A model generated the notes under the pieces. That model made no database searches and was not told the origin of the DNA. It saw only the letters and a program-made list of their open reading frames with translations. Position numbers and translations under genes: made by a program. This document shows positions 37,718 to 42,315 of a stretch of DNA of 64,000 nucleotides, piece by piece (the first letter of the stretch is position 1; each line of letters opens with the position of its first letter). The stretch spans positions 96,001 through 160,000 of IMG/VR virus record IMGVR_UViG_3300031669_000002; one strand, given 5' to 3'. This DNA is from a virus.

Positions 37718-37930
37718 ATGAAACAATATAAACTTACATCGGCAGATTTTGTATTGCCGGGAGAATCACTAGAACCAGATGCATATATGTCTGCAGAGGA
37801 CTTAGCATCAATTAAAAAACAAAATGAGTTATCTGGTTTTTTACATCAACAGATTGCAGATAGGCTTGCTAATCCTGTTGATCTTCCAGAAGCAAATACT
37901 ATAATTATTAGAGAGCAAAAATATGAGTAA
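37718..37930 (+). CDS. Small hypothetical protein
   Basis: Operon-packed; overlaps the TerL start. Confidence 0.65.
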   Translation: MKQYKLTSADFVLPGESLEPDAYMSAEDLASIKKQNELSGFLHQQIADRLANPVDLPEANTIIIREQKYE

Positions 37931-38585
37931 GATGCCGACAGAATCAGTATTGGTTAAGACACCACATAAAACTGAGTTCTATTCTCATCAGCACGTAGAA
38001 GAATTTATGAAGTGTGCAGATCCAATAACTGGACCTAACTATTTTATGACTAACTTCTTCTACATTCAGCATCCAACTAAGGGTAGATTGAAGTATGCTC
38101 CGTTTCCTTATCAGGTTCATTTGGCGCAATCATTTCACGAATATAGATTTAGTGTTAATCTTCTTTCCCGTCAATTAGGAAAAACAACTACAGCAGCAGG
38201 TTACTTGCTATGGTATGCAATGATGATTCCTGATAGCACGATCTTAATTGCAGCTCACAAATATACGGGCGCACAAGAAATTATGCAACGTATTCGTTAT
38301 GCGTATGAGTCAGTTCCCGATCATATTCGTGCTGGTGCAACAACCTACAACAAGGGAAGCATTGACTTTGATAATGGTTCAAGAATTATTTCAGCTACAA
38401 CTACAGAAAACACCGGTCGAGGATTATCAATATCATTATTATACTGCCTGGGTGGCGAAACAACTGTAAAAATTAGAGACAAAACTACATTGGTAGAAGA
38501 AGAAATATCTTTACAAGATTTGTATATCAGGCTATCTAATCCCGACAAAGTTCTAAATGACGAATTTGCATTCGTACATAAATAA
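37923..38585 (+). CDS. Large terminase fragment 1 (ATPase N-part, 174 aa) plus split intein 1 N-part (46 aa, from 38445)
   Basis: Walker A SRQLGKTT; ends SISLLY|CLGGETTVKI (intein block A) and then stops. Confidence 0.9.
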   Translation: MSKMPTESVLVKTPHKTEFYSHQHVEEFMKCADPITGPNYFMTNFFYIQHPTKGRLKYAPFPYQVHLAQSFHEYRFSVNLLSRQLGKTTTAAGYLLWYAMMIPDSTILIAAHKYTGAQEIMQRIRYAYESVPDHIRAGATTYNKGSIDFDNGSRIISATTTENTGRGLSISLLYCLGGETTVKIRDKTTLVEEEISLQDLYIRLSNPDKVLNDEFAFVHK

Positions 38586-38589
38586 GTAT

Positions 38590-39498
38590 ATGAAAACTAA
38601 ATTACAACAATTTAAAGAACGAAACAGAAAACGCAATGCCCATTTATACATTGATGGGCTAATAGAAGGGTACGATTATGTAGTTTGCCCTATTAGCAAG
38701 GAACGAATGAGTATGATTAAGAAATCATATATAACAAATGTGTTGGGTATTACAGAAGATGAATACCCAAATATACAGCGAGTTTGTCTAAAGAGGAAAG
38801 AGAATATTAAATCTGGGTTAAAACAAATTGATCTGGAAACTGGATTGACTAAACATGAGCTTAGTGTAGAAAAAGCAAAAGAAGTATTATCGGAAATTGG
38901 TAAAGATGGTATGTCGGGCTATGACCGCAAAGGTAAAAAGACTCGTGCCACGCATATGGCCAATATTGATGAACTAGGCAGGCATGGATATAGGCGGCAA
39001 GCAGATGCAAGGTTAACTACTCTTTTACCCAATGGACTTACAGTAGAAGAAAATGCACATCAGAAACAAAAAGAATCAATGCTAAAAAATCACTCTACTG
39101 GGTCTGGCGGTGCAAGTAAAATTTCTAAAAAAGTTCTAGCGCCGGTGATTACATTGCTCGAAGCGAACAATCTAAAATATTACTTTGATAAACAAGAATA
39201 TGGCATTAAGGACGCAGATACGGGCAATTATTATTTTTATGACCTAACTATTCCAGAATTACACATTGCAATTGAATATCAATCTGCCGCATGGCACTCT
39301 AACCCAGTATGGAAAGACAGTGTGTGGCAACAGTGGGCACCACCAAAAGGAAAAAGAAAAACTGCTAATGAATCGCTTGAATATGATTATAACAAAGCAC
39401 GATCGCTGTATAAACATCGTAATATAGTTACGCATTATGTATGGGAAGATACCGTTGATGCAGACGTAGAGAGGATATTATGTTTGCTGAAAATGTAA
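38590..39498 (+). CDS. Vsr-like (EDxHD-type) homing endonuclease between split-intein halves
   Basis: YFYDLTIPELHIAIEYQSAAWH; own late promoter at 38577. Confidence 0.75.
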   Translation: MKTKLQQFKERNRKRNAHLYIDGLIEGYDYVVCPISKERMSMIKKSYITNVLGITEDEYPNIQRVCLKRKENIKSGLKQIDLETGLTKHELSVEKAKEVLSEIGKDGMSGYDRKGKKTRATHMANIDELGRHGYRRQADARLTTLLPNGLTVEENAHQKQKESMLKNHSTGSGGASKISKKVLAPVITLLEANNLKYYFDKQEYGIKDADTGNYYFYDLTIPELHIAIEYQSAAWHSNPVWKDSVWQQWAPPKGKRKTANESLEYDYNKARSLYKHRNIVTHYVWEDTVDADVERILCLLKM

Positions 39499-40208
39499 AC
39501 TACGAAATCTTAACTCCCGACGGATGGCGAGATTTCCGTGGGATTACCATGACAGAGAATAAGATAACCTCGACGGTTATCTTAGACAATGGGATCTCAA
39601 TTTCTGCAACTGATAATCACTATTTCTTTTTAGATGGACAAAAAATACAACTTAAAGATATTGTTGTAGGTAATAAATTTGATACCGTTAATGGTAAGGC
39701 AACAGTTCTTTCAATTAATACCAACAAAGCAGAATGTGTATATGATATTGTTGAAGTAGATCAGCAAGAACATAAGTTTATAATTAATGATTCTATTATC
39801 ACAAAGAATTGTGATGAATTTGCATTCGTAAGAAACACAATTGCGAAAGAATTTTGGACTTCAATTTCTCCAACATTATCAACAGGTGGTAAGGCAATTA
39901 TTACATCAACTCCAAATAGTGATGAAGATCAATTTTGGGATATCTGGACAAACGCAAACAAGACGCTAGATGAATTCGGGAATGAACAAGAGTTAGGAAA
40001 AAACGGATTTAAGGCATTCAAGGCACTGTGGCCCGAGCACCCAGATAGAGATGAAAAATGGGCAGCAGACGAACGAGGTAGAATTGGAGACGAGCGTTTT
40101 CGTCGAGAACACGACTGTCTGAGCGCAAAATCAATCATAACATTGCAAGACACAACAGGCAAAATATTTGATATAAATATTGGCGATTTCTTTGATCAGC
40201 ATAAATAA
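39480..40208 (+). CDS. Split intein 1 C-part (110 aa) + terminase fragment 2 (102 aa) + split intein 2 N-part (30 aa)
   Basis: Block B SATDNH; ITKN|CDEFAF (Walker B); coupling motif ITSTP; RFRREHD|CLSAKS then stop. Confidence 0.9.
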   Translation: MFAENVNYEILTPDGWRDFRGITMTENKITSTVILDNGISISATDNHYFFLDGQKIQLKDIVVGNKFDTVNGKATVLSINTNKAECVYDIVEVDQQEHKFIINDSIITKNCDEFAFVRNTIAKEFWTSISPTLSTGGKAIITSTPNSDEDQFWDIWTNANKTLDEFGNEQELGKNGFKAFKALWPEHPDRDEKWAADERGRIGDERFRREHDCLSAKSIITLQDTTGKIFDINIGDFFDQHK

Positions 40209-40244
40209 CTTTGCATAATAACGATTTTAGAGAGAACATTAAGT

Positions 40245-41249
40245 ATGGGCGCAGCTTATAGAGAATCAAAATTAGACAATAATCGATATTGTAAGTCAAA
40301 CGGTCAATTTACTCGACATCTTCGGTTAAACAACTTAACATACCAAGAATATTTTGAAAAATATATAACCAAGACCAGCCCAAAATGTCAATGCGGTAAG
40401 CCACTAACTTTTTATCAGAAAACCGAATCATATGCCAATAGTTGCGGTATCCCAAAATGTGTAGGCAAAACAATAAGTATTGTTCGACAAAACACACCAA
40501 TCGAAGCAAAACAAAAACAAGCAGAAAATTATAGACAAGCACAATTCAACAAGACTACAGAACAAAAGAAGAAACAGAAAGAAAAGGCAGCAGCAACATA
40601 TTTTAAGAATTTTGGGACTACCACGTCAAACTCTCCTGTACAGAAAAAGAAATCGGCGCAGACAAAACTACAAAAATATGGAGATGAAAAATATAACAAC
40701 AGTCAAAAAAGTGCAGATAAGAATAGAAACAAATCAATTGAAGAACAAGATGCAATTAATGAATCTCGACGAAAAACTAATATTGAAAAATATGGTGTTT
40801 CTTGTGTATTTTTATTGCCTAACAATACCAGAAAATCAAATAAAGGTAATGCATCGATTAAAGATTATGTAATGCCAAGTGGTGTTAGGGTCGGGGTAAG
40901 AGGATACGAGCCAACAGTAATATCAATATTACTTAATCAAAGACACATAGATGATATAGTTATTCAAGACGCCTATTCAGATTGTAAGATTGGACCATTT
41001 ACTTATAGTATGATAAATAGACATACTGCAAACTATTATCCAGATATCTATATACCGTCAGAAAATAAAATCATTGAAGTCAAAAGTAGATGGTGGTGGG
41101 ACGGAAACGGAAAAGAAAAGTATAAATCGAGATTATTAAATAATCTAAGAAAAAGAAAAGCGGTATTAGATAAAGGATACATATACGAAGTCTGGCTATT
41201 TGAAGATAAGAAAAATTATAAGGTTTTAATAGATGACTCAGATTTTTAA
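40245..41249 (+). CDS. PD-(D/E)xK homing endonuclease between split-intein halves
   Basis: YYPDIYIPSENKIIEVKS and KYG repeats; late promoter at 40200. Confidence 0.75.
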   Translation: MGAAYRESKLDNNRYCKSNGQFTRHLRLNNLTYQEYFEKYITKTSPKCQCGKPLTFYQKTESYANSCGIPKCVGKTISIVRQNTPIEAKQKQAENYRQAQFNKTTEQKKKQKEKAAATYFKNFGTTTSNSPVQKKKSAQTKLQKYGDEKYNNSQKSADKNRNKSIEEQDAINESRRKTNIEKYGVSCVFLLPNNTRKSNKGNASIKDYVMPSGVRVGVRGYEPTVISILLNQRHIDDIVIQDAYSDCKIGPFTYSMINRHTANYYPDIYIPSENKIIEVKSRWWWDGNGKEKYKSRLLNNLRKRKAVLDKGYIYEVWLFEDKKNYKVLIDDSDF

Positions 41250-42315
41250 ACCAAACACAGAACAATATAAAGTTCTTACTCCAACAGGATTTCAACATTT
41301 TTCGGGAGTATCATTGATGACTTATAAATCAATGATTAGACTCAATTTTGAAAACGATAAATTTATTGATTGCACTGCTGATCACAGAATCTATGTGTCT
41401 GACATTAAATCTAAGCAGGCATGTAGATTGCGCCGTGGTGAAGAAGTGCTAACAATTGACGGAAGTGTCAAATTACTGAATAAGGTAAAATTAAAGGATA
41501 AAGTTCCTGTATATGATCTGATTGGTGTCGAAAACGGAGCAAGATTTTACGCTAATTCTCTTCTTGTTTCCAATTGCGAGCCAATCATATTTGAAGAGAC
41601 TCTTATTAATGCAGTTAAATTATCAACGCTAGTAGAAAAAGATCCAGTTGAGAAACAGGGGCAAGTTAGATGGTATAAAACTCCTAAGAAAGGCTGCACT
41701 TATCTAATTGGATTAGATCCAAGCTTAGGCACTGGTGGAGATTTTGCGGCAATGGAAATAATCGAACTCCCGTCGATGGAACAAGTAGGAGAATGGCAGA
41801 ATAACAAGACTCCCATTCAAGCGCAGATTAGGCTATTACGTGACATCACTGATTATATATTTGATATAACAGGCAACACAAAGAATATCTATTACAGTGT
41901 AGAAAATAATACACTTGGTGAAGCAGCATTGGTGGCAATAAGCGAAATAGGGGAAGAGAACATTAAGGGATATTTCCTAACAGAGACTCTTAAAGCAGGT
42001 TCTTCTAGATCATATAGAAAAGGATTTACTACGACTGCTAAATCTAAGCTTACGGCCTGCTCCAAAATCAAACAGTTAATAGAGACAGACCGCATCACTA
42101 TAAATAGTAAAAACCTAATTAGCGAACTTAAAACGTTTGTTGCAAGCGGAAACACATACAATGCTAGATCTGGAGACACAGACGACTTAGTTTCTGCACT
42201 ACTTCTAACAACAAGAATGATGCAAACGATGCAATCTTACGATTTAGAGTTAGATACTCGTATGAGAGGCACAGATGAGCCAATAGTTATGCCACTTCCA
42301 TTCCTAATGGGATAA
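41233..42315 (+). CDS. Split intein 2 C-part (114 aa) + terminase fragment 3 (RNase H-like nuclease, 246 aa)
   Basis: Block B CTADH; LVSN|CEPII; IGLDPSLGTGGD, VENN and TDDLV nuclease motifs. Confidence 0.9.
   Translation: MTQIFKPNTEQYKVLTPTGFQHFSGVSLMTYKSMIRLNFENDKFIDCTADHRIYVSDIKSKQACRLRRGEEVLTIDGSVKLLNKVKLKDKVPVYDLIGVENGARFYANSLLVSNCEPIIFEETLINAVKLSTLVEKDPVEKQGQVRWYKTPKKGCTYLIGLDPSLGTGGDFAAMEIIELPSMEQVGEWQNNKTPIQAQIRLLRDITDYIFDITGNTKNIYYSVENNTLGEAALVAISEIGEENIKGYFLTETLKAGSSRSYRKGFTTTAKSKLTACSKIKQLIETDRITINSKNLISELKTFVASGNTYNARSGDTDDLVSALLLTTRMMQTMQSYDLELDTRMRGTDEPIVMPLPFLMG

Follow-up and report, generated by a model that had tools for sequence, protein, structure and literature searches.

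Organisation of the terL locus

The window analysed comprises 64,000 nucleotides (positions 96,001-160,000) of the 178-kb record IMGVR_UViG_3300031669_000002, which derives from an uncultured jumbo phage. Between positions 37923 and 42315 of the window, five open reading frames (ORFs) lie on the same (+) strand, where the large terminase gene terL is encoded as three polypeptides (F1-F3) with two endonuclease genes (HEG1, HEG2) between them. The gene order is TerL-N with IntN1, HEG1, IntC1 with TerL-middle and IntN2, HEG2, and IntC2 with TerL-C.

37923-38585, + strand: F1, 220 aa; 174-aa extein (ends ISLLY), 46-aa tail (starts CLGGETT)
38590-39498, + strand: HEG1, free-standing, 302 aa counted from the second ATG; helical modules in the N-terminal part, followed by a Vsr-like nuclease domain at the C-terminal end (residues 171-302)
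39480-40208, + strand: F2, 242 aa; 110-aa IntC (TDNH, ends ITKN), 102-aa extein (starts CDEFAF), 30-aa IntN (starts CLSAKS)
40245-41249, + strand: HEG2, free-standing, 334 aa; Cys-rich segment at the N-terminal end, PD-(D/E)xK domain at the C-terminal end; Pfam DUF7487, E 5e-27
41233-42315, + strand: F3, 360 aa; 114-aa IntC (TADH, ends VSN), 246-aa extein (starts CEPI)

Re-reading of the ORFs reproduced to the residue the boundaries and lengths given in an earlier, sequence-only reading of this DNA, and every structural element named there for a fractured-gene layout is present. The order of a fractured gene, i.e., enzyme-N plus IntN, a free-standing endonuclease ORF, and IntC plus enzyme-C, occurs twice within the one gene, with spacers of 4 and 36 nt between IntN and endonuclease gene. 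F2 and F3 each possess their own Shine-Dalgarno/ribosome-binding site and ATG, located at the starts of IntC1 and IntC2, respectively. The database gene call for F1 starts at 37932 and is 217 aa long.

The joined exteins

37923-38444, + strand: extein 1, 174 aa with Walker A; Pfam Terminase_6N, E 4e-8; 64% identity to PA5oct TerL residues 10-180
39810-40115, + strand: extein 2, 102 aa with Cys+1, Walker B DE and motif III TSTPN, ending RREHD; 66% identity to PA5oct TerL residues 181-282
41575-42315, + strand: extein 3, 246 aa with Cys+1 and the RNase-H-like nuclease; Pfam Terminase_6C, E 1e-6; 49% identity to PA5oct TerL residues 283-531

Joined, the three exteins (174 + 102 + 246) give 522 aa that align colinearly and without gaps with residues 10-531 of the TerL that Pseudomonas phage PA5oct encodes without interruption, the two +1 Cys residues occupying the positions of L181 and V283. 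The motifs follow in the order Walker A GKT (nt 38178), Walker B DE directly after junction 1, TSTPN (nt 39903) and the RNase-H-like domain. This alignment and the Pfam matches substantiate the 522-aa TerL with correctly ordered motifs that had been proposed from the letters. Break 1 falls just before Walker B and break 2 at the ATPase/nuclease junction.

Two split inteins of the atypical TerL family

38445-38585, + strand: IntN1 and stop; Cys1, CLGGETT..., ~31-38 aa of intein, then the non-intein tail DEFAFVHK
39480-39809, + strand: IntC1, 110 aa, block B TDNH, ends ITKN; best PDB match CatC 6DSL_B, E 1.1e-6 (whole PDB)
40116-40208, + strand: IntN2 and TAA stop; 30 aa, Cys1, CLSAKS...
41233-41574, + strand: IntC2, 114 aa, block B TADH, ends LLVSN; best PDB match CatC 6DSL_B, E 3.3e-8 (whole PDB)

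At both sites the residues of a class-1 intein were found: the nucleophile at position 1 is Cys (F1 residue 175 and F2 residue 213), block B reads TxxH in either IntC part, and a terminal Asn precedes the +1 nucleophile (KN/C at site 1, SN/C at site 2). Both also show the atypical TerL split after motif N1, for which an IntN of ~25-37 aa and an IntC of ~104-122 aa are characteristic: IntN1 has ~31-38 aa (46 with the tail) and IntC1 110 aa, IntN2 30 aa and IntC2 114 aa, with block B in the C parts. The TAA after IntN2 is the sole in-frame stop between IntN2 and HEG2, as evident from read-through translation. The F1 tail had been regarded as intein over all its 46 residues; its length stands, but only ~31-38 residues belong to the intein, since the last eight (DEFAFVHK) duplicate the beginning of extein 2.

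The catalytic positions are conserved across a set of 98 middle-piece homologues of 44-69% identity. Site-1 block B has T44 in 97 and H47 in all 98; the intein ends in N in 53 homologues and in Q in the other 45, and Cys+1 (C111, F2 numbering) as well as Cys213 of IntN2 are invariant (98/98 each), as are D112 and E113 in extein 2. IntN1 Cys1 is invariant in 85 of 85 F1 homologues.

The penultimate His, which assists Asn cyclisation in most inteins and is common but not universal among them, is absent from both IntC parts. Its absence (Lys at site 1, Ser at site 2) had been pointed out before; it does not represent a defect, as the replacement is conserved in the family, with Lys in 46 of 98 site-1 homologues and Ser (as here) or Lys in the site-2 relatives, whose inteins end in SN or KN followed by CEP or CEFL.

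CatC, which ranks first in the PDB for IntC1 and IntC2 alike, is a consensus of the experimentally active AceL-TerL and GOS-TerL inteins, according to the available text of PMC11766414, which bears out the assignment to the short-N/long-C TerL inteins of AceL-TerL type. The N-parts are less telling: IntN1 matches CatN (6DSL_A) weakly (E 0.25) and IntN2 gave no match to it. IntC1 and IntC2 share 23% identity, and a profile built from IntC1 homologues, searched against the 178-kb record, retrieved IntC2 at E 2.9e-18 and no further intein of this family. At the level of sequence, the matches to CatC and that of the IntC1 profile to IntC2 are no chance resemblance.

Structure prediction of the IntN1-IntC1 complex gave an ipSAE of 0.63 versus 0.01 for the best control. 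Among 80 solved complexes, 58 attained this mark, as did 2 among 110 mismatched pairs; the pass may reflect memorisation by the predictor, a similar complex (6DSL) having already been solved. Contact agreement between runs was at least 86% and partner pLDDT at least 67; IntC1 was contacted by residues 170-202 only of the 217-aa F1 call. Based on conservation and this one predicted complex, both inteins are predicted to trans-splice.

Endonuclease genes and the 18-nt copy

HEG1 has 321 homologues; its residues E203, D218, E229 and K269 are invariant. Its AF2 model (pLDDT 96) resembles Vsr (1cw0_A; Z 8.5, rmsd 4.0, 113 aligned residues) and I-Bth0305I (3r3p_A; Z 8.1, rmsd 3.1, 91 aligned), relationships taken from the VIA comparison, Foldseek alone yielding only E > 0.001. 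Its Atlas neighbours bear DUF559/Vsr. Invariant residues of HEG2 are E222, P266-D267 and E278-x-K280; its best folds, TnsA (1f1z_A; Z 8.9, rmsd 3.1, 114 aligned) and Vsr, are tied, on a model with a pLDDT of just 62.6. For both proteins, searches of PDB sequences, NCBIfam and PHROGs returned nothing informative.

38563-38580, + strand: 18-nt copy, 17/18 identical to the Walker-B coding sequence at 39813-39830

Immediately downstream of the copy lie a TAAATA motif and the start of HEG1. It is also found upstream of HEG1 in the related loci L090, L092 and L084, in the last of these after the stop and out of frame. This conservation in four diverged loci, one with the copy behind the stop codon, might reflect an element acting at the DNA level. 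The TAAATA motifs, which occur at both IntN stops, resemble a T4-type late promoter, but no promoter is proposed; the window shows no enrichment of TATAAATA (6 found versus 7.6 expected).

Distribution among relatives and stability in the population

At least 97 further protein clusters (90% identity) contain the IntC-extein-IntN middle piece with the nucleophiles invariant, and more than 97 diverged homologues share the same ORF boundaries. As judged from these sequences, the doubly split layout is not unique but common in metagenomes.

Relatives vary in having no intein, one split intein or both, with or without endonuclease genes. Of 80 relatives in IMG/VR, 77 have an intein-free TerL, among them L002, the closest (82-92% aa identity); site 1 alone is occupied in L090-L093, site 2 alone in L003 and L095, and both sites in L082 and L084. 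Such a sporadic distribution fits the expectation for mobile elements. L084 has kept the site-2 split without any HEG, which implies that the split form is viable alone. One relative also bears a third, contiguous intein in terL.

The same five genes were recovered from five other assemblies of other samples at 99.4-100% identity without indels. Variant sites in the exteins are synonymous in 22 cases and non-synonymous in one. The low SNP density of the cassettes was considered as proof of recent homing, an argument weakened by the 1.36 kb upstream of terL, which likewise has 0-1 SNP.

Proposed assembly of TerL and competing explanations

The anatomy, family relationships, conservation and population stability described above point to a doubly fractured terL carrying two split-intein/HEG cassettes, whose three products would be ligated post-translationally into one TerL; we put the probability of this reading at roughly 0.85. 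According to it, two mobile cassettes, each consisting of an IntN, a free-standing HEG and an IntC, would have inserted in terL, one ahead of Walker B and one at the ATPase/nuclease junction. Translation would yield three separate polypeptides, F2 and F3 from their own ribosome-binding sites; IntN1 would dock on IntC1 and IntN2 on IntC2 to complete two HINT folds, and two class-1 trans-splicing reactions (Cys1, TxxH, terminal Asn, Cys+1) would yield the 522-aa TerL with a Cys scar at either junction. HEG1 and HEG2 would have no part in splicing and most likely serve to carry the cassettes into terL alleles that lack an intein.

Assembly of the three polypeptides into a multi-subunit terminase through non-covalent association of the intein halves, without peptide ligation, is very improbable. 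Split-intein halves do bind tightly, the predicted IntN1-IntC1 docking is silent on chemistry, and neither IntC part has the penultimate His. However, the invariance of Cys1, Cys+1, the N/Q end and the block-B His, with Thr in 97 of 98, at ~50% overall identity would be hard to explain without chemistry, and since break 1 parts the Walker-B strand from its Asp-Glu, ~150 intein residues would be left within the ATPase core.

We regard as barely credible that selfish elements have swamped a terL that is no longer functional, the DNA being packaged by another terminase encoded on the missing genome half. As the record is only ~51% complete, a second intact TerL elsewhere is conceivable, yet neither a second TerL nor a second TerL nuclease domain was found within its 178 kb, and a 92%-complete relative of 327 kb with the same layout has no other TerL copy by extein-1 query. 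The 22:1 excess of synonymous variants and the full-length identity (49-66%) of the exteins to the functional TerL of a cultured phage, PA5oct, also speak against a disabled gene.

The chance that the interruptions are spliced out of the RNA, as group I/II introns with endonuclease ORFs, or reflect sequencing or assembly error is negligible. Self-splicing introns often carry phage HEGs, but Rfam gave no family at E <= 1 between 37500 and 42600, intron families included (only a sub-threshold sRNA match on the opposite strand), and introns were rejected on this ground. Moreover, each insertion is flanked in frame by intein halves that possess start codons of their own, and the ORF boundaries recur in the diverged homologues. 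Error, which the sequence-only reading had named as a possible source of the stops, is ruled out by the six agreeing, indel-free assemblies; the stops are real.

With IntC1 at the N-terminal and IntN2 at the C-terminal end of F2, a cross-reaction would circularise it, and selection for orthogonal pairs is therefore to be expected; IntN1/IntC1 and IntN2/IntC2 may accordingly be orthogonal. The atypical TerL intein family can, however, be promiscuous, given that the GOS-TerL and AceL-TerL N-fragments are interchangeable (available text of PMC11766414) and that loci with IntC1 parts of only 34% identity retain 78% conservation in IntN1. Charge complementarity was dropped as a basis of orthogonality, there being no clear logic in the net charges (-6 for IntC1, +5 for IntC2, both IntN slightly negative). 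The endonuclease I-TevI represses its own synthesis via an operator that mimics its homing site. The combined proposal that the pairs evolved to strict orthogonality under selection against F2 circularisation, and that the 18-nt copy imitates the site recognised by HEG1 in homing, serving as autorepression operator and not being a passive scar, is tentative and, as a whole, rather unlikely.

Relation to known systems

Fractured genes were described by Dassa, London, Stoddard, Schueler-Furman and Pietrokovski (2009; PMC2677866), including a single Lake Gatun gp17-like terminase locus. As far as the available text of that paper goes, they share with the present locus the same-strand order of enzyme-N plus IntN, HEG and IntC plus enzyme-C and a phage replication or packaging enzyme as host, and the terminase intein is likewise split after motif N1, with a C part of 122 aa. 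According to the same text, the genes contain one fracture each, whereas two in one gene give three polypeptides here, and the IntN-to-HEG spacers measure 27-51 nt compared to 4 and 36 nt. Its endonucleases are of the GIY-YIG or the Vsr-like family; only HEG1 (Vsr-like) belongs there, HEG2 being a DUF7487 PD-(D/E)xK nuclease of another family.

AceL-TerL, GOS-TerL and the consensus Cat-TerL (Thiel 2014; Bachmann & Mootz 2015; Stevens 2018; as summarised in the available text of PMC11766414; PDB 6DSL) resemble both inteins in their TerL host, short IntN (25-37 aa), long IntC (104-115 aa) and Cys1/Cys+1 chemistry, and differ from both IntC parts in the penultimate His, which the latter lack.

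Two-piece TerLs with the same site-1 or site-2 atypical split intein, whose halves frequently flank an endonuclease gene, occur in cultured phages. The site-1 type is found in Yersinia phiR1-RT (g166/g167/g168) and its relatives SG1 and HY03, Campylobacter Los1 (gp027) and Salicola SCTP-2 (genes 267 and 224), and the site-2 type in Providencia PSTRCR_127, Serratia 92A1 and Vibrio VP-1. In the region shown, phiR1-RT, Los1 and SCTP-2 each have only one of the two split inteins, and no cultured phage was among the matches listed for both the site-1 and the site-2 search.

Engineered tandem trans-splicing and SICLOPPS (e.g., PMC7210297 and PMC12707363) likewise use three segments, two split inteins and an IntC-extein-IntN middle. 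Those systems are man-made from unrelated pairs picked for orthogonality; the present one, if it splices, would be natural and built from two distant paralogues of one atypical family. Judged by sequence, each part is of a known kind, and the combination of two split inteins in one gene appears undescribed: no account of such a TerL was found in the literature searched, which largely consisted of papers outside subscription.

If splicing takes place, an essential single-copy phage enzyme would tolerate two independent post-translational ligations, with a third, contiguous intein in a relative. The doubly split terL, widespread and stable in jumbo-phage populations, illustrates the reach of selfish-element load on this gene. 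In semisynthesis, natural pairs whose N-fragment measures 30 aa are highly valued; pairs co-evolved in one polypeptide would be a rational starting point in the search for orthogonal atypical inteins for three-segment ligation, for which the ~100 diverged middle pieces offer ready sequence diversity. As a lead, the C-extein of AceL-TerL presumably starts with CEFL, as in site-2 relatives of the present locus.

Organisation of the terL region

The large terminase gene was found in three pieces, F1, F2 and F3, and the fractured-gene layout proposed in the sequence-only reading, in which an endonuclease gene lies between split-intein halves, was recovered twice in one same-strand ORF series.

terL region and its ORFs (ORF listing)
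37923-42315, + strand, five-ORF terL region
F1, + strand, 220 aa, extein 1 and IntN1
HEG1, + strand, from the second ATG at 38590, 302 aa, putative homing endonuclease
F2, + strand, 242 aa, IntC1, extein 2 and IntN2
HEG2, + strand, 334 aa, putative homing endonuclease
F3, + strand, 360 aa, IntC2 and extein 3

Cut at the residues named in that reading, F1, F2 and F3 yielded exteins of 174, 102 and 246 aa, respectively, and intein pieces of 46 (IntN1), 110 (IntC1), 30 (IntN2) and 114 aa (IntC2). The exteins total the proposed 522 residues. In BLASTP, the three exteins aligned end to end and gap-free with the uninterrupted TerL of the Pseudomonas jumbo phage PA5oct, extein 1 matching residues 10-180 (64% identity), extein 2 residues 181-282 (66%) and extein 3 residues 283-531 (49%), with L181 and V283 of PA5oct replaced by the two +1 cysteines. 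At break 1, the Walker-B beta strand (ISLLY) is severed from its Asp-Glu; break 2 follows RREHD and lies where the ATPase and nuclease domains join. In Pfam, F1 matched Terminase_6N and F3 matched Terminase_6C, both above cut-off; F2 gave a sub-threshold Terminase_6N match only (17.8 bits, cut-off 22). Both F2 and F3 possess their own Shine-Dalgarno sequence and ATG. The 177,974-base IMG/VR record, estimated to be 51% complete, contains this single TerL, and its terL relatives are the jumbo phages PA5oct, SCTP-2 and Atu_ph07. F2 and HEG2 share a reading frame with one TAA between them (40206-40244); two related loci (L082, L083) have two stops there.

An identical F2 protein occurs on five additional contigs that stem from other samples (ENA, Logan, JGI). 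Each has the same gene series (217/302/242/334/360 aa) and, across as much as 4.5 kb, is 99.4-100% identical to the window without indels. This excludes sequencing errors at 38583 and 40206, and the stops splitting terL are real. No Rfam family was detected at E ≤ 1 in the terL region, apart from a sub-threshold sRNA match on the opposite strand.

Across the six near-identical assemblies, the exteins contained 22 synonymous variant sites and one non-synonymous site, pointing to purifying selection. Comparison of the window with loci L100-L104 revealed the extein variants to cluster beside the intein junctions, at 38411-38426 (seven synonymous changes within 16 nt), 39836-39876 and 41601-41682, with a single variant in 2824 nt of intein-plus-HEG DNA (six assemblies; Fisher 7e-10). 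This clustering looks like co-conversion tracts, a reading that is only suggestive because 1.36 kb upstream of terL is as invariant as the cassettes (IntN, HEG and IntC).

Identity and conservation of the split inteins

Among all PDB sequences, the best match of both IntC parts was 6DSL chain B, the "consensus engineered intein CatC" (IntC1, E 1.1e-6; IntC2, E 3.3e-8), in agreement with the proposed short-N/long-C type of AceL-TerL. According to PMC11766414, Cat is the consensus of the atypically split inteins AceL-TerL and GOS-TerL, which are active in trans-splicing and have N parts of 25-37 aa and C parts of 104-115 aa. IntN1 matched CatN weakly (E 0.25) and IntN2 gave no hit. Cys1, TxxH in the C piece, the terminal Asn and Cys+1 are present in both inteins. 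The two are distantly related, with 23% identity between IntC1 and IntC2 (E 9e-8) and 6 of 31 residues in common between IntN1 and IntN2.

Complex prediction for IntN1-IntC1 returned an ipSAE of 0.63 (best control 0.01); 58 of 80 solved complexes attain this value, as do 2 of 110 mismatched pairs. Because 6DSL is a similar complex, the pass may reflect only that likeness. Runs agreed in at least 86% of contacts with a partner pLDDT of at least 67, and only residues 170-202 of the 217-aa F1 gene call were predicted to contact IntC1, the last 15 residues making no contacts.

With F2 as query, 1270 proteins were retrieved. Among the best 120, 98 (the window's own included) were 238-262 aa long and those listed covered 96-100% of the query, so that they have the same IntC-extein-IntN architecture. 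In the alignment of these 98, Cys+1, IntN2 Cys1 and the block-B His were invariant and the block-B Thr was found in 97. IntC1 ends with Asn in 53 sequences and with Gln in 45, and its penultimate residue is Lys in 46 sequences and His in 49; it thus falls into two subfamilies, TKN|C and SHQ|C. The columns of F2 residues 108-110 read [ST]-K-N in 46-53 sequences and S-H-Q in 45-49; terminal Gln is used by about half of the IntC1 family. Relatives at site 2 (the IntN2/IntC2 break) end in SN or KN, followed by CEP or CEFL. The lack of a penultimate His in both IntC parts, which had been noted from the window, is confirmed and is a conserved family trait.

Proposed trans-splicing and orthogonality

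The best-supported reading, on indirect evidence, is that two independent class-1 trans-splicing reactions would yield one 522-aa TerL, because the pieces are homologous to inteins shown to splice, every catalytic residue is near-invariant among sequences whose overall identity is about 50%, the exteins are under purifying selection, and the split state persists without a HEG (locus L084). The initial finding is real and its interpretation correct; the novelty lies in the double fracture into three polypeptides, fractured genes and atypically split TerL inteins being already known.

The IntC1-extein-IntN2 layout of F2 is similar to that of SICLOPPS. Cross-reaction of IntC1 with IntN2 would circularise F2, and that of F1 with F3 would make a dead E1-E3 product (extein 1 joined to extein 3), for which reason selection for orthogonality of the two pairs is plausible. 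Caution is warranted, since AceL and GOS N-fragments are interchangeable (PMC11766414) and since, between the window and locus L090 (6001-8919), IntN1 is 78% and the cognate IntC1 34% identical. The HEG1 nuclease domains of these two loci did not align; the cassette modules evolve or exchange independently.

Endonuclease genes and flanking motifs

HEG1 (38590-39498) had 321 homologues in a representative library, with E203, D218, E229 and K269 invariant, and its fold was predicted with a pLDDT of 96. Vsr-type chains headed its structure list, and its language-model neighbours carried DUF559/Vsr.

Structural matches of the HEG1 C-terminal domain (171-302); a Z near 8, taken alone, is borderline
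Vsr 1cw0_A, Z 8.5, rmsd 4.0, 113 aligned
DUF559-like protein 3hrl, Z 8.4, rmsd 2.5, 87 aligned
I-Bth0305I homing endonuclease catalytic domain 3r3p_A, Z 8.1, rmsd 3.1, 91 aligned

HEG1 belongs to the Vsr-like family that Dassa et al. (PMC2677866) reported in fractured genes. HEG2 (40245-41249) is a DUF7487 protein (Pfam, E 5e-27) with invariant E222, P266-D267 and E278-x-K280; in a weak model (pLDDT 62.6), its C-domain is similar to TnsA (Z 8.9) and Vsr (Z 8.6), and it is a PD-(D/E)xK nuclease of a family other than that of HEG1. Five HEG1 homologues (P0268, P0271, P0273, P0274, P0279) form one ORF with IntC1 and extein 2 (and extein 3), and in a further one the fusion partner is E1-IntN1, so that HEG1 relatives exist both fused and free-standing.

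An 18-mer (38563-38580) codes for the F1 tail DEFAFVHK and shares 17 of its 18 positions with the beginning of extein 2 (39813-39830). Such an 18-nt Walker-B copy (DEFAFV) lies directly 5' of HEG1 in four diverged loci (the window, L084:4083, L090:6643 and L092:6634) and is translated in about 35 of 120 F1 homologues. Because the L084 copy follows the stop and is not in frame, the 18-mer is conserved as DNA; it may be a homing relic or a HEG1 binding site. A TAAATA motif always adjoins it. Both IntN ORFs of the window end in the same 9-mer, CATAAATAA (38577-38585 and 40200-40208), with the stop inside TAAATA, which also occurs at the IntN ends of relatives with a HEG and is absent from the HEG-less site-2 gap of L084. 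A promoter reading of TATAAATA was not adopted because its 6 occurrences in the window do not exceed the 7.6 expected.

Distribution among relatives and cultured phages

The intein elements are sporadically distributed, terL being uninterrupted in 77 of 80 IMG/VR relatives, including the closest one (L002; exteins 82-92% identical at the aa level). Loci L003 and L095 carry only the site-2 cassette and L090-L093 only that of site 1 (the IntN1/IntC1 break). L084 and L085 are in three pieces with HEG1 present, HEG2 absent and an F2-F3 gap of only about 60 nt; in L082, all parts are present, with F1 3 kb away beyond three opposite-strand genes.

Cultured phages have one or the other of the split inteins, at site 1 in phiR1-RT (g166/g167/g168), SG1, HY03, Campylobacter phage Los1 and SCTP-2, and at site 2 in Providencia PSTRCR_127, Serratia 92A1, Vibrio VP-1 and others; none carrying both was found among cultured phages. 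The three-piece TerL is recurrent in nature, and a description of it, or of two split inteins in one TerL, was not found in the literature searched, most subscription journals lying outside the search.

In a relative genome (G001; 327 kb, 92%-complete), F1 contains a further contiguous insertion of ~326 aa right after the Walker A GK (L099:1483-3102), with an Ala start, an HN|T end and LAGLIDADG-like motifs; together with the two split inteins, this makes three inteins in one TerL. Opposite-strand genes spanning 3 kb lie between its F1 gene and HEG1-F2. In the cultured, 440-kb Salicola phage SCTP-2 (MF360958.1, L088), the TerL N fragment (gene 267) and the IntC-bearing C fragment (gene 224) are ~40 kb apart, the latter, with 694 aa, being longer than IntC plus exteins need.
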